Shown: positions 1,279 through 8,034, numbered from the stretch's first letter. The stretch is 64,000 bases of DNA from Alphaproteobacteria bacterium (GCA_036381615.1 DASVCL010000014.1:6621-70620); one strand, 5' to 3'. The notes: generated from the sequence alone by a model not told the origin. Numbers and translations are program-made.

Positions 1279-3357
1279 ATGTCTGCTGACACTGGAACTG
1301 CCGAACCTCAAGAGGAACGGCAGATGGTCGATGCGCCCGCCCTGCGGGCGATCGAGGAGGAGCCCCAGTTCCGCGAGGCTCTCGAATCCTGCCCGGCCGG
1401 CCTGATCGTCGTTGACGAAGATGGGCGACTTCTCTTCCACAACGCGCGTCTGCGCGAGCTTCTCGGCTACCGCCGGGAGGAAATGAACCTCATCGACACC
1501 AGAATGTTCTGGTGCGACCTGCAACAGAGATCGCGGATCATCGAGGCCCTGCAGGCGCGTGGTGGCCAGCTGCTGAACGAAGAGGTGATCTGGAAGACGA
1601 AGACGGGCGAACTGCGCCACCTCTTGCTGTCGTATGTTCAGGTCGCCTATCAGGGCGGCCACGTCAGCTTCGTCGGCGGCAAACGGCTGTGCTGGGTCTA
1701 CGACATCACTGTGCTCAAGCAGCGCGAGGCCCAGATCTCGGAACAGGAACGGCAATTCCGCGAGATTCTCGCCTATTGCCCCGCCGGCCTGGTGATCGTC
1801 GACGAGGAGGGCCGCCTCCTTTTCCACAACGCGCGCCTGCGCGAGCTTCTGGGCTACACCGAGCAAGAGCTGAAACTGTTCGATACGCGGCAGTTTTGGC
1901 ACGACCTCGATCATCGCGCGCGGATCATCGAGCGCCTGCGAGAACAGGGCGGGCAGCTGCTGAACGAGGAGGTGATCTGGAAGACGAAGCATGGCCAGCC
2001 GGTGCATGTGCTCATTTCCTATGTTCAGGTGGCGTATCACGGCGGGCATATCAGCTTCGCGGGCGGTCAGCGCATGTCCTGGGCCTATGACATCACGCCG
2101 CTTCGCCAGGCGGAAGAAGCACGTATACGCAGCGAGCAACGCCTGACCGAGGCGATCGAGAGCATCTCCGAAGGGTTTGCCTACTATGATGCGGAGGACC
2201 GTCTGGTCATCTGCAACTCCTGCTATCGCGAGATTCTCTATGCCGGCCTCGACGCCGACCTTCCCGCCGGAATGACGTTCGAGACCATTGTTCGCCGGGC
2301 CGCGGAGCGCGGCTACATCAAGGATGCGGAGGGATGCGTCGACGAATGGGTCGCCCAACGGCTGTTGCAGCATCGAAACCCGGGCGAGCCGCAGGTGCAG
2401 CGGCGCTCCAATGGCCGCTGGGTCATGATCAGCGAGAGACGGACCGGGGACGGCGGCACCGTGGCGGTCTATTCGGACATCACGGAGCTGAAGGAGCGGG
2501 AGGAGAGTCTTGCCGAAAAATCCGCCACACTCGAGGCGCTCTCAGGCAAGTTGGCGAAATATCTTGCGCCTCAGGTCTATCAGTCGATCTTCACGGGACA
2601 GCAGGACGTGAAGATCGCGAGCACGCGCAAAAAGCTGACGGTCTGCTTCTCCGACATCGCCGATTTCACCGAGACCACCGACAAGATGGAATCGGAGGAT
2701 CTCAACCACCTGCTTAATCACTACCTGACGGAAATGTCGAAAATCGCGCTGCAGTACGGGGCGACGATCGACAAGTACGTCGGCGACGCCATCGTCATGT
2801 TCTTCGGCGATCCGGAGACGCGCGGCGTGAAGGAGGATGCCATCGCTTGCGTCAAGATGGCACTGGCCATGCAGCAGCGGATGGGGGAGCTTGCCGACAC
2901 CTGGCGAGGTGCCGGCATCGAAACGCCCCTGCGCTGCCGGATCGGCATTCACACCGGCTACTGCACTGTCGGCAATTTCGGCAGCGAAGACCGGATGGAC
3001 TACACCATCATCGGCGGTGCGGTAAACCTCGCCTCGCGGCTGGAGCATGAGGCGCAGCCGGGTCGTATCCTCATTTCGTTCGAGACGTTTGCTCACGTGA
3101 AGGACCACATTCAGTGCGAGGAGCTGGGACATATCAGGGCCAAAGGAATCGCCTACCCGATCGCGACCTATGGTGTCGTCGCGCTGAAGGGCGATCCCGC
3201 CACGATTCAAGGCCCGGTTCGCGCCGATTTGCCGCATCTGCGGCTGGAGATTGACCCGGGATCCATGTCCGGCGACGAGCGCCGCGAAGCGGCCGCGGCG
3301 CTGCGCCGTGCGCTCGACATGGTCGAGAGGGAGCCAGGGTATAACCCGACAGCCTGA
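1279..3357 (+). CDS. PAS-repeat sensor adenylate/guanylate cyclase (class III)
   Basis: ATG with a GGAGAGAG Shine-Dalgarno (SD). Has repeated PAS-like modules and a C-terminal cyclase core ([13 protein letters not shown]...[13 protein letters not shown]...[16 protein letters not shown]...[15 protein letters not shown]). Confidence 0.9.
1366..2139 (+). repeat. in-frame tandem duplication (2 x 387 nt) of a PAS module inside the cyclase gene
   Basis: [13 protein letters not shown]... starts at 1366 and [13 protein letters not shown]... at 1753. Hand alignment gives about 84 identities in the first ~120 positions. Confidence 0.85.
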
Positions 3358-3520
3358 ATTTGCAGGCGCCGGCGCGTCTTTCCCGACAAACGCAAACGCG
3401 CAGGGGCGGGAAGGCGCAGGCCGATCCGGCGGCCCCGGAGGGCGCGGCGGCCGGACGCGCGTGCTGCGCCTGTCGCAGCGCGCGCCGTCGCCCCGGCTTC
3501 GTGACTGCCGATCGTGCCGG

Positions 3521-3569
3521 CTATGCCGGCTGCAGCGTCAGCTGTTCGAGTTCCTCGACGCGTTTGGCG
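3521..3569. repeat. left 49-bp direct repeat (orphan copy of the Rad52-family gene 3' end)
   Basis: Identical to 5687-5735 except for one T/C mismatch at repeat position 43. Encodes the same AKRVEELEQLTLQPA* on the minus strand. Confidence 0.95.
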
Positions 3570-3812
3570 ATTTTCGGAGCATGGGTCGCAGTTTCACTGG
3601 TGGAAGGTGTCCTTCTTATGCGGTTTCGGAATCTCATCACTCGAGTGATGGTCATGATGCCGCTTCTTCAAGATCACGCCCCGGTCCAAGAGCTGGCGAA
3701 GACCGGCCAGGGTGTTAGCTTCATGCCTCCAAAGTGGAATTGCGTGGGCGATCGGCCGAACGCCCCTTTTGTTTAGATGATGACGACACTGAGGGCTCGC
3801 AATTGTTGCGCC

Positions 3813-3840
3813 TTGATTTCCTCTGTTCTTCAATTATAAG
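3813..3840 (+). promoter_or_regulatory. candidate sigma70-type promoter of the cassette operon
   Basis: TTGATT (3813-3818), 16-nt spacer, TATAAG (3835-3840), about 55 nt upstream of the ATG at 3896. Pattern match only. Confidence 0.3.
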
Positions 3841-3895
3841 TTGCTTAAGGAGCGGGACAAAATTCACGAAACATGAGATTTGCAAGGGGGGCAAA

Positions 3896-4768
3896 ATGAC
3901 GATTTTTGAACTCGTCAAAGTCGCACTCGATGAACTCTACCAAGACTGTCTGAGCGTATACGGTGACGGTGCTGACCGGAAAATCATCGAGAGTATGAGC
4001 TATCTGACGAATGTCTACCGAAACTTAAATGATGAAGGTCGCGAATCTGTTAACTACAGGAATCCGGTCAATCGTTTCGCCTACGTATACAAGTATGTAG
4101 CTGCTCATGGTGACTACATTGTTCAAGTTCTTCATGAGCTGCAACGGGAGTTGGAACGTCAGGGAAGCAGATCGATCTTCACGGACAAGAAACTTCGAGT
4201 GTCATGCATCGGTGGTGGACCAGGAAGCGACATCATCGCCGTTTTGAAGTACCTGAGTGAACGCGCGGAGAAGGAACCCGTAGAAAAGGTTATTTGCTAT
4301 TTGCTTGATAGAGAGCAAGCCTGGGCAGACGTTTGGACAGAACTTGACGAACTGTTCCGCGTCAATGTGGCGCTCAACGCAAACTTCCAGCCGTTGGATG
4401 TGACAAATCCAGAATCTTGGCGGTTGCAGAGAAAGTTTCTTGAAGCTGACCTGTTTACGATGAGCTATTTTGTTTCTGAAGTTATGTCACGCAACGGCGT
4501 AAGTGACTTCTGGAAGTACCTATTCGACCATGCAAAGGTTGGCTCGCTTTTTCTGTATATTGATAACGGGAGCGATATCTTCAATTCATACTTTGATAAC
4601 CTTTGTGGAGATGCTGGGCTGACACCTATTATCAAGCAGGACAACTATCGTATTATTCCGCGGTTTTCCGAGCAGGCATCAGAACTTGCCGAATATCAAG
4701 ATAAGTTCGGCCACAATCCCAGGATTCAAGGTCATGTGAGCTATCGCGTTCTTCAGAAGAAGTTTTGA
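3896..4768 (+). CDS. class I SAM-dependent methyltransferase-like protein (290 aa), family not placed
   Basis: ATG at 3896 preceded by a GGGGGG SD. Has Rossmann motif I CIGGGPGSD (nt 4205-4231), an acidic beta2 end (YLLD), LDV and DLFTMSYF. No (D/N)PP(Y/F) motif. Low GC. Confidence 0.6.
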   Translation: MTIFELVKVALDELYQDCLSVYGDGADRKIIESMSYLTNVYRNLNDEGRESVNYRNPVNRFAYVYKYVAAHGDYIVQVLHELQRELERQGSRSIFTDKKLRVSCIGGGPGSDIIAVLKYLSERAEKEPVEKVICYLLDREQAWADVWTELDELFRVNVALNANFQPLDVTNPESWRLQRKFLEADLFTMSYFVSEVMSRNGVSDFWKYLFDHAKVGSLFLYIDNGSDIFNSYFDNLCGDAGLTPIIKQDNYRIIPRFSEQASELAEYQDKFGHNPRIQGHVSYRVLQKKF

Positions 4769-5382
4769 TGGCTGAGCTGTTCTCAGATAATGAGAAGCTA
4801 GAGCGGATTCCGATGCCGGGCGCTGAGGTTTACCTCCTGCGGCATCTTGCTCTTGATCAGGCGCCAGATCGTATTAAGGACGAACTCATCCGTGAGACAC
4901 CCTGGCGTCAGGAAGCGGTGAGTGTCTGGGGTAAACATTACCTGCAGCCACGTCTCATCGCTTGGTATGGTGATCCTGGTTGCAGGTATTCTTATTCTGG
5001 TCTCAGCCTCGACCCTCTTCCGTGGACAGAATTGTTACTTGCGCTGCGCGCCCGTGTGGAACGAGTGGTAGACGAGAGGTTCAATAGTGTGCTGCTGAAC
5101 TACTATCGCGACAACAATGACAGCATGGGATTCCACAGCGATGACGAGCGGGAGCTTGGGCCGAGACCTATCATCGCGTCTTTGAGCCTTGGAGAAGAAA
5201 GAGCCATCGTCTTCAAAGCTAAAGCAAATAAAGAATTGAAACCGATTCGGATCATGCTTGGATCAGGTAGCCTCTTGGTGATGAAGGGCGACACACAGGC
5301 TAACTGGAAGCACGCCATTCTAAAGGAGAGGCGTCCTTGCGGTCCTCGTGTGAATCTGACATTCCGGCGTATCCAAATATAA
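4768..5382 (+). CDS. alkB: alpha-ketoglutarate/Fe(II)-dependent dioxygenase AlkB (ALKBH2/3-like)
   Basis: Shows NSVLLNYYRDNNDSMGFHSDDE (H123-x-D125), WKH (H182) and RVNLTFR (R194, R200). The ATG overlaps the upstream stop as TGATG (4766-4770). Confidence 0.9.
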   Translation: MAELFSDNEKLERIPMPGAEVYLLRHLALDQAPDRIKDELIRETPWRQEAVSVWGKHYLQPRLIAWYGDPGCRYSYSGLSLDPLPWTELLLALRARVERVVDERFNSVLLNYYRDNNDSMGFHSDDERELGPRPIIASLSLGEERAIVFKAKANKELKPIRIMLGSGSLLVMKGDTQANWKHAILKERRPCGPRVNLTFRRIQI

Positions 5383-5492
5383 GTTTTCTGAACCCAGGTG
5401 GGTGATCGCGACATCCACGTCAAAGTATTTGAATAGATAAGAAGGCAGGCGTCTCTAGATTCTTGTCATTGATAATCATCCGACTTTAGGCC

Positions 5493-5547
5493 GCAACCGC
5501 CTAGACCGGGGAGATTCGAAGGCATCTCGAATCTGAGATTGCGGTTG
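5493..5547. other. nested imperfect hairpin in the cassette 3' non-coding region
   Basis: Outer arms GCAACCGC (5493-5500) and GCGGTTG (5541-5547). Inner perfect 8-bp stem AGATTCGA (5512-5519) and TCGAATCT (5527-5534), flanked by GAGATT direct repeats. Confidence 0.5.
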
Positions 5548-5686
5548 TGCGCTTGGGTACATTGAAGCGTCCGACAGTGTTGGCTGCCTGAAAGCTTTAT
5601 TGCAGCAGCTCGTCTGATTGCATGCTCAATACGTCAGAAGGTGAGAATAACCCGTCGAGGCATTTCGGCGCCGTCAGACGTATCGC

Positions 5687-5735
5687 CTATGCCGGCTGCA
5701 GCGTCAGCTGTTCGAGTTCCTCGACGCGCTTGGCG
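5687..5735. repeat. right 49-bp direct repeat (functional 3' end of the Rad52-family gene)
   Basis: See 3521-3569. It starts exactly at the TAG stop (5687-5689, minus strand). Confidence 0.95.
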
Positions 5736-6421
5736 GCCTGTGGGAACCGCTCGGCGAGGCGCCGTGCGGTGGCGGCATTGGTGGTCCACCACTCCGCGGC
5801 ATTGCCGGCCCGCATCGCGCTCTCGAGCGCCTCGAGGAAGGCGCCGCCGCGATCGTACATCACGGCATCGCCCGTATCCGGGTCGATCAGCTGGAAGCCG
5901 CGCGGGGCCGTCGGCGCGCGCTTCATGCGGCGCGTCAGCAGGTCCTGCAGTTTCGCGGTTTCGTGGGCCGCAATCCTGACCGAGCGGCCCGAGGCCTCGA
6001 TATCGACCCAAGGTGCTTCCAGATCATAGAGGTAGCGTCCGATCCCCCAGCGCACGGCGGCGCGCTTGAACGCGTCCGAGAGCGCGCCCTTTTCCGCCTC
6101 GAAATCGGTGTCGCCAGCGCCGTCGGCCTTCCAGATCCATTCGTCGCCGATGCGGATGCCCAGCTCGCACACCGTCTTGCCGTTCGCGTGGGGATACCGG
6201 CACTGCCAGTTCTCGGGGCCGCAGACCTCGTCGAGGCGGTCCATCACGTCGCGCGCGTCGATGTAGGCGAGCGCCATGCCGCGCTTTCTGTCGGCGGTGG
6301 TCGAGCCGACACGCCAGCTCACGCGGTCGGCCGGAAAGGGGGCGGTAAGGGCCTTGATGTCGATCACGTCGCTGTCTCCGTCTTCGGCTGTGTTGATGTC
6401 GTCGCTTCGTAGAGGGGGCAT
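5687..6421 (-). CDS. Rad52/22-family single-strand annealing protein (phage recombinase type)
   Basis: LTAPFPADRVSWRVG...ALAYIDARDVMDRLDEVCGPENW...KGALSDAFKRAAVRWGIGRYLY is the family signature. Start chosen at the internal ATG 6421 (MPPLRSDD...); the ORF-track start at 6574 looks like shadow extension. Confidence 0.8.
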   Translation of the reverse strand: MPPLRSDDINTAEDGDSDVIDIKALTAPFPADRVSWRVGSTTADRKRGMALAYIDARDVMDRLDEVCGPENWQCRYPHANGKTVCELGIRIGDEWIWKADGAGDTDFEAEKGALSDAFKRAAVRWGIGRYLYDLEAPWVDIEASGRSVRIAAHETAKLQDLLTRRMKRAPTAPRGFQLIDPDTGDAVMYDRGGAFLEALESAMRAGNAAEWWTTNAATARRLAERFPQAAKRVEELEQLTLQPA

Positions 6422-6603
6422 TGGCCGCCATTCACGTCGCGGCAGTAGAGATAGGGCGGGAAGTCGTCCCACGTCTTCCGGGTCACGAACCCGAAACCTT
6501 CGATCCGGCGGTGCTTGATGCACAGCCACCGCCAGGGCGGATCGTGCCGATCCACCTTGTAGACGTGCGCGCACGTCTCGCAGAACGTCGGCTCATGCCG
6601 CAT
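6364..6603 (-). CDS. small Cys-rich phage-type protein (79 aa)
   Basis: MRHEPTFCETCAHVYKVDRHDPPWRWLCIKHRR...CRDVNGGQCPLYEA has CxxC plus further Cys residues. Its ATG at 6603 overlaps the stop of the upstream ORF (6593), and it overlaps the Rad52-family start. Confidence 0.5.
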   Translation of the reverse strand: MRHEPTFCETCAHVYKVDRHDPPWRWLCIKHRRIEGFGFVTRKTWDDFPPYLYCRDVNGGQCPLYEATTSTQPKTETAT

Positions 6604-7283: not shown

Positions 7284-7985
7284 TCAGCGCCGGTTGTACT
7301 TGCCGACGATGACGTGCGCCTGCTGCCATTCCTGCCGGCTGGCCTGGAACTCGCGCGCCGGATTCCATTGCTTGAGCCGCCAGCTTCGGTCGTTCCAGCC
7401 GACCAGATTCTTGACCATGGCGATCATGTCGCGATCGGGCTGATGCTTGACCAGGAGCACGTCATCGCCGCGCAGCGGCGGCAGCGATGGATGGACGAGC
7501 ACCATGTCGCCATGGCGGTAGGCCGGCTCCATCGAATCCCCGACGACATAGACGGCGAACGCCTGCGCGACATGCTCCAGCGGCCTGGGTCGAGGGACCC
7601 AGTCGATCGGGTCCGGGGTGACCAGCATGCCCGTCGGGCCACCCTGCGCACTGGCATAGACCGGAAGATCGCGGTCTTTTGCGGTGCTGCCGGCGAGTGC
7701 GACCGGATCTATCCGGCGGGCGGCGCCATCATGCCGTTGCGGGCCGGTGCGGCCGTCGGCGCCATCCACGCGCCGCAGCGCCCGCTCGTCGACGCCGAGG
7801 ATGGCCGCCAGCGCCGGGCGTATCTTCTCCGGGATCTCGCGCGGCGTCCCGCGCTCGAGGAACTGCTGCAGATAGGCGTGGTTCCGACCGAGCTTGAGCG
7901 AGACCTCGGCAAGGGAGAGTCGCAGATCGGCGATGCGCTGCCGCACCAGCTGGCGGACGCGATCCTGTGGTTCGGTTTCGGCCAT
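7284..7985 (-). CDS. CI/LexA-like repressor (XRE HTH + S24 peptidase)
   Basis: N-terminal HTH (LSLAEVSLKLGRNHAYLQQFLER) and C-terminal S24 domain (VVGDSMEPAYRHGDMVLV...LLVK). Start taken at ATG 7985 (MAETEPQ) behind a GGGGGAG SD; the ORF-track start at 8021 would sit inside the operator. Confidence 0.85.
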   Translation of the reverse strand: MAETEPQDRVRQLVRQRIADLRLSLAEVSLKLGRNHAYLQQFLERGTPREIPEKIRPALAAILGVDERALRRVDGADGRTGPQRHDGAARRIDPVALAGSTAKDRDLPVYASAQGGPTGMLVTPDPIDWVPRPRPLEHVAQAFAVYVVGDSMEPAYRHGDMVLVHPSLPPLRGDDVLLVKHQPDRDMIAMVKNLVGWNDRSWRLKQWNPAREFQASRQEWQQAHVIVGKYNRR

Positions 7986-8020
7986 GGCGAAGCTCCCCCG
8001 GAAGCCTGCGAATCGGGACA

Positions 8021-8034
8021 TAGGATAAATCCTA
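8021..8034. promoter_or_regulatory. operator-like palindrome TAGGA-TAAA-TCCTA upstream of the repressor gene
   Basis: Perfect palindrome, extended by ATAGGAT (8020-8026) and ATCCTAT (8038-8044). Sits about 36 nt upstream of the repressor ATG. Confidence 0.45.

Follow-up and report, generated by a model that had tools for sequence, protein, structure and literature searches.

A conserved bacterial methyltransferase–AlkB gene pair as a possible writer/eraser cassette

We analysed a 64,000-nucleotide stretch of DNA from an Alphaproteobacteria bacterium (GCA_036381615.1 DASVCL010000014.1:6621-70620), hereafter the window, in which two plus-strand genes encode a methyltransferase, the proposed "writer", and an AlkB-family dioxygenase, the proposed "eraser". 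Gene 1 runs from the ATG at 3896 to the TGA at 4766-4768 and encodes 290 amino acids (aa), and gene 2 runs from the ATG at 4768 to the TAA at 5380-5382 and encodes 204 aa. The two genes have one base in common, within the TGATG at 4766-4770, and this stop/start overlap on the plus strand, read directly from the sequence, indicates translational coupling. A G-rich, Shine-Dalgarno-like GGGGGG run (3886-3891, plus strand) can likewise be read four nucleotides before the ATG of gene 1. The pair lies in an inserted island (3570-5678) with a G+C content (GC) of 0.47-0.52; the GC is 0.47-0.50 over 4001-5500, as against 0.59-0.70 on either side, and that of the pair is 16 points under its flanks. The overlap, the coordinates, the drop in GC and the ribosome-binding element had all been described in a first-pass annotation of this DNA and were reproduced here. 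The same annotation had proposed a sigma-70-like promoter, TTGATT (3813-3818)-N16-TATAAG (3835-3840), on the plus strand upstream of gene 1. The sequence exists, but it is a weak candidate: a -10 hexamer ending in G keeps it from being called in a consensus scan, and the two promoter-like sites found in 3300-5800 correspond to the chance level (1.7 +/- 1.3 in shuffled sequences).

Gene 1 (3896-4768, plus strand) was identified as a class-I S-adenosylmethionine (SAM)-dependent methyltransferase by Pfam, AlphaFold2 (AF2), Foldseek and alignment. It had at first seemed impossible to place in a named family, but it passes the gathering threshold of PF11312 (Methyltransf_34, Bmt6-like), with 33.3 bits against 26 (E 3.9e-8). 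The match is partial, aligning residues 62-190 with profile positions 43-181 of 304, and the same precomputed match is carried by most gene 1 homologues. PF11312 is tied to EC 2.1.1.312, the yeast Bmt6, which is the methyltransferase for 3-methyluridine (m3U) at position 2843 of 25S rRNA (PMC5307852). Every motif of the class-I layout quoted in the first-pass annotation was found, namely SCIGGGPGSD (103-112), YLLD (135-138), LDV (167-169) and DLFTMSYF (185-192). Since G106, G108-G110, D138, V169, S194 and E195 are invariant among 43 homologues, and G107 (41/43) and D168 (42/43) are nearly so, the enzyme looks catalytically competent. The model of gene 1, built with 22 homologues, has a predicted local distance difference test score (pLDDT) of 88.6 and a predicted template modelling (TM) score of 0.89, and consists of a Rossmann methyltransferase core of alternating strands and helices behind a long N-terminal helical hairpin. 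Gene 1 hence combines the motif I glycines, the acidic residue of beta-2, the D/V of motif III and the Rossmann fold that define the class. The (D/N/S)PP(Y/F/W) motif of DNA amino-methyltransferases (N6-adenine/N4-cytosine) is absent from gene 1, as first noted, and also from the invariant columns of the family. Gene 1 also has no PC or TC in motif IV/VI as the catalytic cysteine of C5-methyltransferases, and no PC motif; its conserved cysteines are C104 (41/43), just before motif I, and C134, near-invariant in the 22-sequence alignment. The family comprises 1081 clusters at 50% identity (E <= 1e-3), almost all of them stand-alone proteins of 275-290 aa.

The structure prediction and Foldseek search proposed in the first-pass annotation gave a divided answer. 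The methyltransferase fold was confirmed by 342 PDB methyltransferase matches at E <= 1e-3, with the mitoribosome factor METTL17/Rsm22 as the best superposition (TM-score on the query, TMq, 0.53-0.56), but the substrate class was not given: the searches against PDB and BFVD yielded class-I methyltransferases of a generic kind, none of them close (TM at most 0.61 on the query). By sequence, gene 1 has no relative in PDB, whether searched as a single sequence or as a family profile, and no match in NCBIfam. Gene 1 is like Bmt6 in that PF11312 is its only Pfam family above threshold, and it differs from both Bmt6 and METTL17/Rsm22 in the partial 33-bit match, in the low TM-scores and in belonging to a bacterial clade of 275-290 aa proteins that is carried on mobile DNA with an eraser-type partner. 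Gene 1 might instead methylate a small molecule or a protein, with the partner repairing the damage done by a reactive product, or acting on a methyl group outside nucleic acids. Such a target would suit the acidic character of the family (median isoelectric point (pI) 5.35, net charge about -6), the lack of any nucleic-acid-binding domain detected by Pfam in gene 1, and the top Foldseek matches by E-value, which include BioC, farnesyl pyrophosphate methyltransferase, NNMT and histamine N-methyltransferase. However, the sole family-level sequence match is to the rRNA methylase family PF11312, the best superposition is METTL17/Rsm22, the neighbourhood holds no conserved genes for biosynthesis or transport, and the AlkB partners are basic proteins of the nucleic-acid type (median pI 8.86). 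We consider this explanation improbable.

Gene 2 (4768-5382, plus strand) was assigned by Pfam, PDB chains and alignment to the Fe(II)/2-oxoglutarate (2OG) dioxygenases of the AlkB family, ALKBH2/ALKBH3 type. The earlier identification as an unambiguous AlkB, based on H123-x-D125, H182 and R194VNLTFR200, holds: PF13532 (2OG-FeII_Oxy_2) is matched over profile positions 3-194 of 194 with 119.4 bits against a cut-off of 31.2 (E 3e-34), and the catalytic core is intact. H123, D125 and H182 are kept in all of the aligned AlkBs (37 paired and 14 others), and R194 and R200 in 50 of the 51, the remaining one having a gap. Among solved structures, human ALKBH3 and ALKBH2 are the closest (E about 3e-35), and gene 2 has the HSDDE segment around the iron ligands in common with ALKBH3. 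This segment reads the exocyclic amine of 1-methyladenine (1-meA) and 3-methylcytosine (3-meC), and N3-methylpyrimidines are known substrates of AlkB/FTO-type enzymes. The shared HSDDE segment thus marks gene 2 as a putative oxidative demethylase of the 1-meA/3-meC type. Gene 2 is not an orthologue of the E. coli-type AlkB, scoring 27.4 bits against 231 for the TIGR00568 equivalog and 23.4 against 267 for NF011930. It resembles bacterial AlkB and ALKBH2/3 in the fold, the HxD...H and RxxxxxR motifs and HSDDE, with up to 69% identity to stand-alone bacterial AlkBs, and it departs from these direct-reversal enzymes in lacking orthology to E. coli AlkB and in standing in an operon with a methyltransferase. 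Gene 2 also matches the dioxygenase half (positions 191-350) of the CRISPR-associated PADLOC model CARF_2OG (PDLC01964, E 8.7e-45), a better match than the one to the AlkB model of Pfam, and contains no CARF domain; this match suggests that at least one further architecture linked to defence has taken up AlkB-type domains.

We then examined the conservation of the pair by scanning one genome per species, which yielded 44 loci, drawn from seven or more phyla, with a relative of gene 1. A partner gene was found to adjoin the gene 1 homologue in 42 of them. AlkB is the partner in 33 loci, lying immediately downstream (divergent and upstream in the Enhygromyxa locus L032), and DUF1848 (PF08902, E 2e-93) takes the same downstream slot in nine; the two loci in which no partner was seen are a 66-aa remnant of the methyltransferase (L044) and a contig starting inside the gene (L042). 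The pairing also occurs in two viral contigs, in Sorangium, Nostoc and Phycisphaerae genomes, and on two mobilizable Nostocales plasmids, where the identity to gene 1 is only 23%. The hosts belong to the Alpha-, Beta- and Gammaproteobacteria, Myxococcota, Acidobacteriota, Chloroflexota, Planctomycetota and Cyanobacteria, and a near-identical locus is present in a Rhodospirillales metagenome-assembled genome (L001). The first-pass annotation had proposed such a co-occurrence search, counting a lack of conservation elsewhere against its reading, and the search found the pair to be widely conserved. Among 41 loci, the stop codon of the methyltransferase gene overlaps the start codon of the partner by 4 or 1 nt in 20, and the junction is no wider than 13 nt in 39, in agreement with the translational coupling proposed from this locus; the AlkB gene is divergent and upstream of the methyltransferase also in the chromosomal Nostoc loci L077 and L078. 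The horizontal acquisition claimed for the pair was equally upheld, as its GC is below that of the flanks in all 46 loci measured, with a mean difference of -12 points for the AlkB type.

The pairwise identities of the methyltransferases and of the AlkBs are correlated (r = 0.82 over 34 pairs), showing that the two proteins co-evolve, that is, diverge together. No third gene is conserved across the loci, where 149 flanking open reading frames (ORFs) fall into 137 different Pfam families; nor is there across them a conserved cognate endonuclease of the kind that defines restriction-modification, or an upstream small ORF that could serve as a mobility signature, beyond antisense shadow ORFs. The pair is a genuine conserved module that has been horizontally transferred. 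That an ordinary repair gene had come to lie beside an unrelated methyltransferase by chance was among the hypotheses of the first-pass annotation, and solo AlkBs of the same clade are indeed common. This explanation is nevertheless refuted by the conservation data: the adjacency in nearly all of the genome loci, its persistence on the cyanobacterial plasmids at low identity, the frequent overlaps, the correlated divergence and the unrelated neighbours leave it with a negligible probability.

The alternative partner, DUF1848, replaces AlkB immediately downstream of the gene 1 homologue in L025-L027, L031, L033-L035, L040, L043, L046, L073, L075 and L079. In a tree of the methyltransferases, those linked to AlkB are intermingled with those linked to DUF1848, indicating that two unrelated enzymes have replaced each other in one role on more than one occasion. 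DUF1848 has an invariant CX3CX2C at its C-terminus, and C-x3-C-x2-C is the canonical cluster motif of radical-SAM enzymes. The NCBIfam radical-SAM models match just this 19-residue Cys motif of DUF1848. The AF2 model of the protein (pLDDT 74) is beta/alpha-barrel-like, with the region of the Cys motif disordered, and gives weak TIM-barrel matches, the best to Elp3 (TMq 0.42). From the invariant CX3CX2C we infer that DUF1848 is an Fe-S/radical-SAM-like enzyme, and it is a candidate O2-independent counterpart of AlkB. The family has more than 6000 homologues, and solo members were found in L070 and in L071, the latter beside a gene for a Spo0A-type response regulator. A DUF1848 gene also partners UG25, an N-terminal methylase-reverse-transcriptase fusion of the UG/Abi family; this family is associated with defence functions, although the defence prediction for UG25 itself was rated inconclusive (PMC9226505). 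UG25 provides a second, independently reported methylase-DUF1848 association, and differs from the present pair in containing a reverse transcriptase.

A further hypothesis of the first-pass annotation was a two-step hypermodification of the ALKBH8 type. In such a pathway, of the ALKBH8 or TET type, the methyl group would be installed by gene 1 and then oxidised by AlkB, or elaborated by DUF1848, to a stable derivative such as hydroxymethyl, formyl or another group. The tight, conserved operon and the co-evolution of its members would suit such a pathway; some AlkB-family enzymes (ALKBH8, ALKBH1) oxidise C-methyl or side-chain groups to stable products, and radical-SAM enzymes commonly elaborate methyl groups. 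ALKBH8 is comparable in that it physically links a methyltransferase with an AlkB-family oxygenase, both of which in that case act on the same nucleoside, the tRNA wobble uridine (5-methoxycarbonylmethyluridine, mcm5U, and its hydroxylated form, mchm5U). ALKBH8, however, is a eukaryotic fusion with an RNA-recognition motif (RRM) and a Trm9-like methyltransferase, and hydroxylates a side chain to a stable product, whereas our genes are separate, with neither a Trm9-like methyltransferase nor an RRM fused to the AlkB: gene 1 matches PF11312 and the AlkB is nearest to ALKBH3/2. Gene 2 is of the ALKBH2/3 type, with HSDDE, rather than of the ALKBH8/ALKBH1 type, and closely related AlkBs occur alone elsewhere. 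Moreover, an O2-dependent dioxygenase and an Fe-S/radical-SAM-like enzyme would have to make equivalent products, and an N-methyl product, the hydroxylation of which amounts to demethylation, is the likelier one because gene 1 lacks the catalytic cysteines of C5-methyltransferases. The two-step pathway is thus quite unlikely.

The two members of the pair differ in how they occur outside it. AlkBs 52-69% identical to gene 2 are found solo in ordinary chromosomal contexts (L050, L057, L059, L060 and L062-L065); they mostly form a sister clade, and L050 and L059 nest inside the paired clade. A specialised, divergent clade of paired AlkBs was considered and is ruled out by these close solo relatives. 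As for the methyltransferase, no intact, separately encoded gene 1 homologue without AlkB or DUF1848 beside it was found in about 55 loci, a modest sample, the exceptions being L042, where the contig is cut, and a single contig with a fusion protein. The latter, P0389 (L074, 614-3985), is a 1123-aa protein with an SMC/AAA_23-like ATPase, a TIR_2 domain, a Ser/Thr kinase and a C-terminal gene-1-like domain, encoded on a metagenomic contig of 5 kb that carries neither AlkB nor DUF1848 near it. Six loci carry a disrupted gene 1: L023, L028, L039 and L043 have frameshifts, L041 (6262-8604) has an insertion sequence transposase, and L044 retains the 66-aa remnant. Of these, L023 and L041 retain a full-length AlkB and L039 an almost full-length one, and L043 keeps its DUF1848 ORF.

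We next describe the genomic surroundings, for which the first-pass annotation had proposed a check of prophages and defence islands. Recombinases, restriction-modification genes and defence islands were indeed encountered at several loci. In L034, L046, L073 and L079, a serine recombinase and a protein of about 136 aa precede the methyltransferase and DUF1848, which are followed by type I restriction-modification, GmrSD or SNF2-NOV_C plus PRTase-CE genes; in L073 and L079, DUF2924 precedes the large serine recombinase, and the helix-turn-helix-like protein of about 136 aa is 53% identical between these two loci. The DUF1848-type pair is thus repeatedly the first cargo of serine-recombinase elements. 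In L031, HsdR and HsdM lie directly downstream of the pair, with no recombinase seen there. Calothrix plasmid6 (L047) and Nostoc pNLP4 (L048) are MOBP-mobilizable plasmids with the gene 1 homologue and AlkB near the relaxase and MobC, and on pNLP4 the pair is also near ParA and type I restriction-modification genes. Other flanking genes include integrases, and single neighbours match BstA, DruA, PD-T4-6 and PD-Lambda-2_B. The association with mobile or defence genes is therefore clear for the DUF1848 branch and the plasmids, but not for most loci of the AlkB branch.

At the locus in the window, the low-GC island is bounded by two copies of a 57-nt direct repeat (family D1), at 3513-3569 on the left edge of the island and at 5679-5735 on the right, which are 93% identical with a 42-nt exact core and a spacing of 2166 nt. 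The left copy duplicates the 3' end of a minus-strand gene for an Erf/Rad52-like single-stranded DNA (ssDNA)-annealing protein (5687-6574; Pfam Rad52_Rad22, Erf-like PHROG E 2.9e-53), and the right copy covers the true 3' end of that gene, suggesting that the insertion duplicated and preserved the end of the gene. No integrase lies inside the 2.1-kb island, and no flanking repeat of at least 16 nt was found at any of the other loci (more than 40), so that the 57-nt repeat is unique to this locus. To the right of the Erf/Rad52-like gene is a minus-strand gene for a CI-like S24 repressor (7284-8021). The description of the region as phage-derived DNA thus applies to these two genes, whereas the left flank and the region beyond the repressor consist of ordinary host genes (a PAS-adenylate cyclase, an SDH protease and a TRAP transporter), and the phage-derived DNA amounts at most to a prophage remnant of about 4.5 kb.

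The island also contains, between the left repeat and gene 1, a 79-aa ORF on the minus strand (3594-3833), and this strand also bears a sigma-70-like site, TTGTCC-N16-TATAAT (10/12), from 3860 to 3833. With no Pfam-independent support, no match in PHROG and no conserved counterpart at the other loci, the ORF is probably not a gene. An Rfam scan of the intergenic regions gave nothing significant (SorY, E 0.25, far below the family threshold), and intergenic folding was not significant either (z-score -1.7).

On the basis of these observations, we infer the substrate, chemistry, toxicity and biological role of the pair as follows. We tentatively propose, in line with one hypothesis of the first-pass annotation, that it is a self-contained, toxin/antidote-like writer/eraser cassette on mobile elements. 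Gene 1 would be an active SAM-dependent N-methyltransferase of rRNA-methylase ancestry (Bmt6/Rsm22-like) that places AlkB-reversible methyl groups, of the 1-meA, 3-meC or 3-methyluracil/thymine type, on single-stranded RNA or ssDNA. The translationally coupled gene 2, an ALKBH2/3-type oxidative demethylase, would strip these methyl groups, and DUF1848 would fill the eraser role in other lineages. If the partner demethylates and DUF1848 can substitute for it, the cassette would act as a toxin and its antidote, both of them enzymes, carried by integrative elements, plasmids and prophage remnants, and might cause addiction, or abortive-infection defence, when eraser activity lags behind writer activity. 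An eraser role of the partner is favoured by the identity of up to 69% between paired and solo AlkBs, the ALKBH2/3 signature, the interchange with DUF1848, and the recombinase, restriction-modification and defence islands at several loci. A pair that is foreign everywhere and found on mobile DNA, that shows no intact lone writer, that tolerates loss of the writer and whose erasers are swapped fits a toxin-antidote module. The basic AlkBs and acidic methyltransferases are also compatible with a physical complex, which the two proteins may form. A more specific version, in which 1-methyladenine (m1A), 3-methylcytosine (m3C) or m3U marks poison replication or translation in a methylation-based toxin or abortive-infection system, with DUF1848 as an O2-independent Fe-S/radical-SAM demethylase and anaerobic counterpart of AlkB, is rather doubtful.

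Among the known systems compared, DarT/DarG would be the closest functional analogue. DarT is an ssDNA ADP-ribosyltransferase and DarG a macrodomain eraser. Like the proposed cassette, DarT/DarG consists of two genes, the toxin gene first, in an operon found at mobile or defence loci, and combines a nucleobase modifier with an enzyme that reverses the modification. The present pair is likewise a compact two-gene operon of a modifier and an enzyme of a reversing class, the partner being of the demethylase type by sequence, and in the modest sample of about 55 loci the putative toxin is never intact on its own, while the family of the putative antidote occurs alone. The two systems differ in their chemistry, ADP-ribosylation and hydrolysis as against methylation and oxidative demethylation, and their protein families are unrelated; furthermore, the toxicity and defence activity of DarTG have been demonstrated, whereas those of the present cassette are putative. 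We found no published description of the methyltransferase-AlkB pair in the full-text literature searched.

Several findings weigh against a toxin/antidote role. The generic class-I matches of gene 1 mean that its substrate class cannot be read from its fold, and the acidic pI of its family, atypical for nucleic-acid binders, makes it less plausible that the methyltransferase binds nucleic acid unaided. Neither PADLOC nor PHROG gave a match for gene 1, and the pair is not a catalogued anti-phage system in PADLOC-DB v2, where gene 2 matches the 2OG half of CARF_2OG only. The neighbours of the AlkB-branch loci are mostly ordinary metabolic genes. A phage-borne module is rejected, since almost no copies turned up in viral collections: none in 50,697 phage genomes, and two in 2.9 million viral contigs. 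Some of the disrupted loci come from nanopore or Illumina metagenome-assembled genomes, in which the frameshifts may be sequencing or assembly errors. The fusion protein P0389, considered as evidence for an effector role, was down-weighted, since it is known from one contig and has no relatives of the same architecture; the 120 closest listed methyltransferase relatives are all stand-alone, most of them 275-302 aa. The support for the function of the cassette is, moreover, computational.

In addition, all of the genomic evidence fits equally well with a clean-up of collateral damage, in which gene 1 performs a useful on-target methylation, such as that of a particular RNA or DNA to the advantage of the mobile element or of its host, and the partner repairs the unavoidable off-target lesions of the 1-meA/3-meC type. 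The precedent is found in eukaryotes, where DNMT1/3 co-evolve with ALKB2, for the accepted reason that the DNMTs introduce off-target 3-methylcytosine (3mC) (PMC9246332). ALKBH8, which the first-pass annotation had given as the sole known methyltransferase-AlkB partnership, is therefore joined by a second one, and DNMT-ALKB2 would be the closest evolutionary precedent for the link seen here. Both cases involve the co-inheritance of a SAM-dependent methyltransferase and an ALKBH2-type dioxygenase; the eukaryotic link, however, is a phyletic co-occurrence rather than a mobile operon, and the DNMTs are C5-cytosine enzymes with a catalytic Cys, which gene 1 lacks. The closeness of the paired AlkBs to stand-alone, repair-type AlkBs, with no divergent clade, and the existence of both partner families as housekeeping singletons agree with a repair function, and translational coupling would guarantee repair capacity whenever the methyltransferase is made. 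The position of the pair just ahead of type I restriction-modification genes in L031, L046, L073 and L079 makes a role in DNA modification conceivable. On the other hand, gene 1 has neither the (D/N/S)PP(Y/F/W) motif nor the catalytic Cys of DNA methyltransferases, no conserved beneficiary such as a nuclease or a reader accompanies it, and its six degraded copies suggest a cost rather than a benefit. Ordinary orphan and restriction-modification methyltransferases, furthermore, generally spread widely without a dedicated AlkB. We regard the clean-up of collateral damage as the main rival of the toxin/antidote reading, possible but on the doubtful side.

The recurrence of the pairing across many bacterial phyla suggests a methyl writer that is checked by its own eraser. 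If the toxin/antidote reading is true, enzymatic base methylation would be added to the few reversible modifications of nucleic acids that serve as toxins or immune effectors, the known example being ADP-ribosylation by DarT, and the pair would be a natural, genetically linked bacterial writer/eraser pair for m1A, m3C or m3U-type marks. It would also give a first function to two families, the large DUF1848 family and the PF11312-like methyltransferases of bacteria, which form about 1000 clusters at 50% identity. If the partner instead repairs collateral damage, the pair would be the first prokaryotic, operon-level counterpart of DNMT-ALKB2. The swap between AlkB and DUF1848 makes it a testable question how organisms without an O2-dependent AlkB reverse 1-meA/3-meC lesions.

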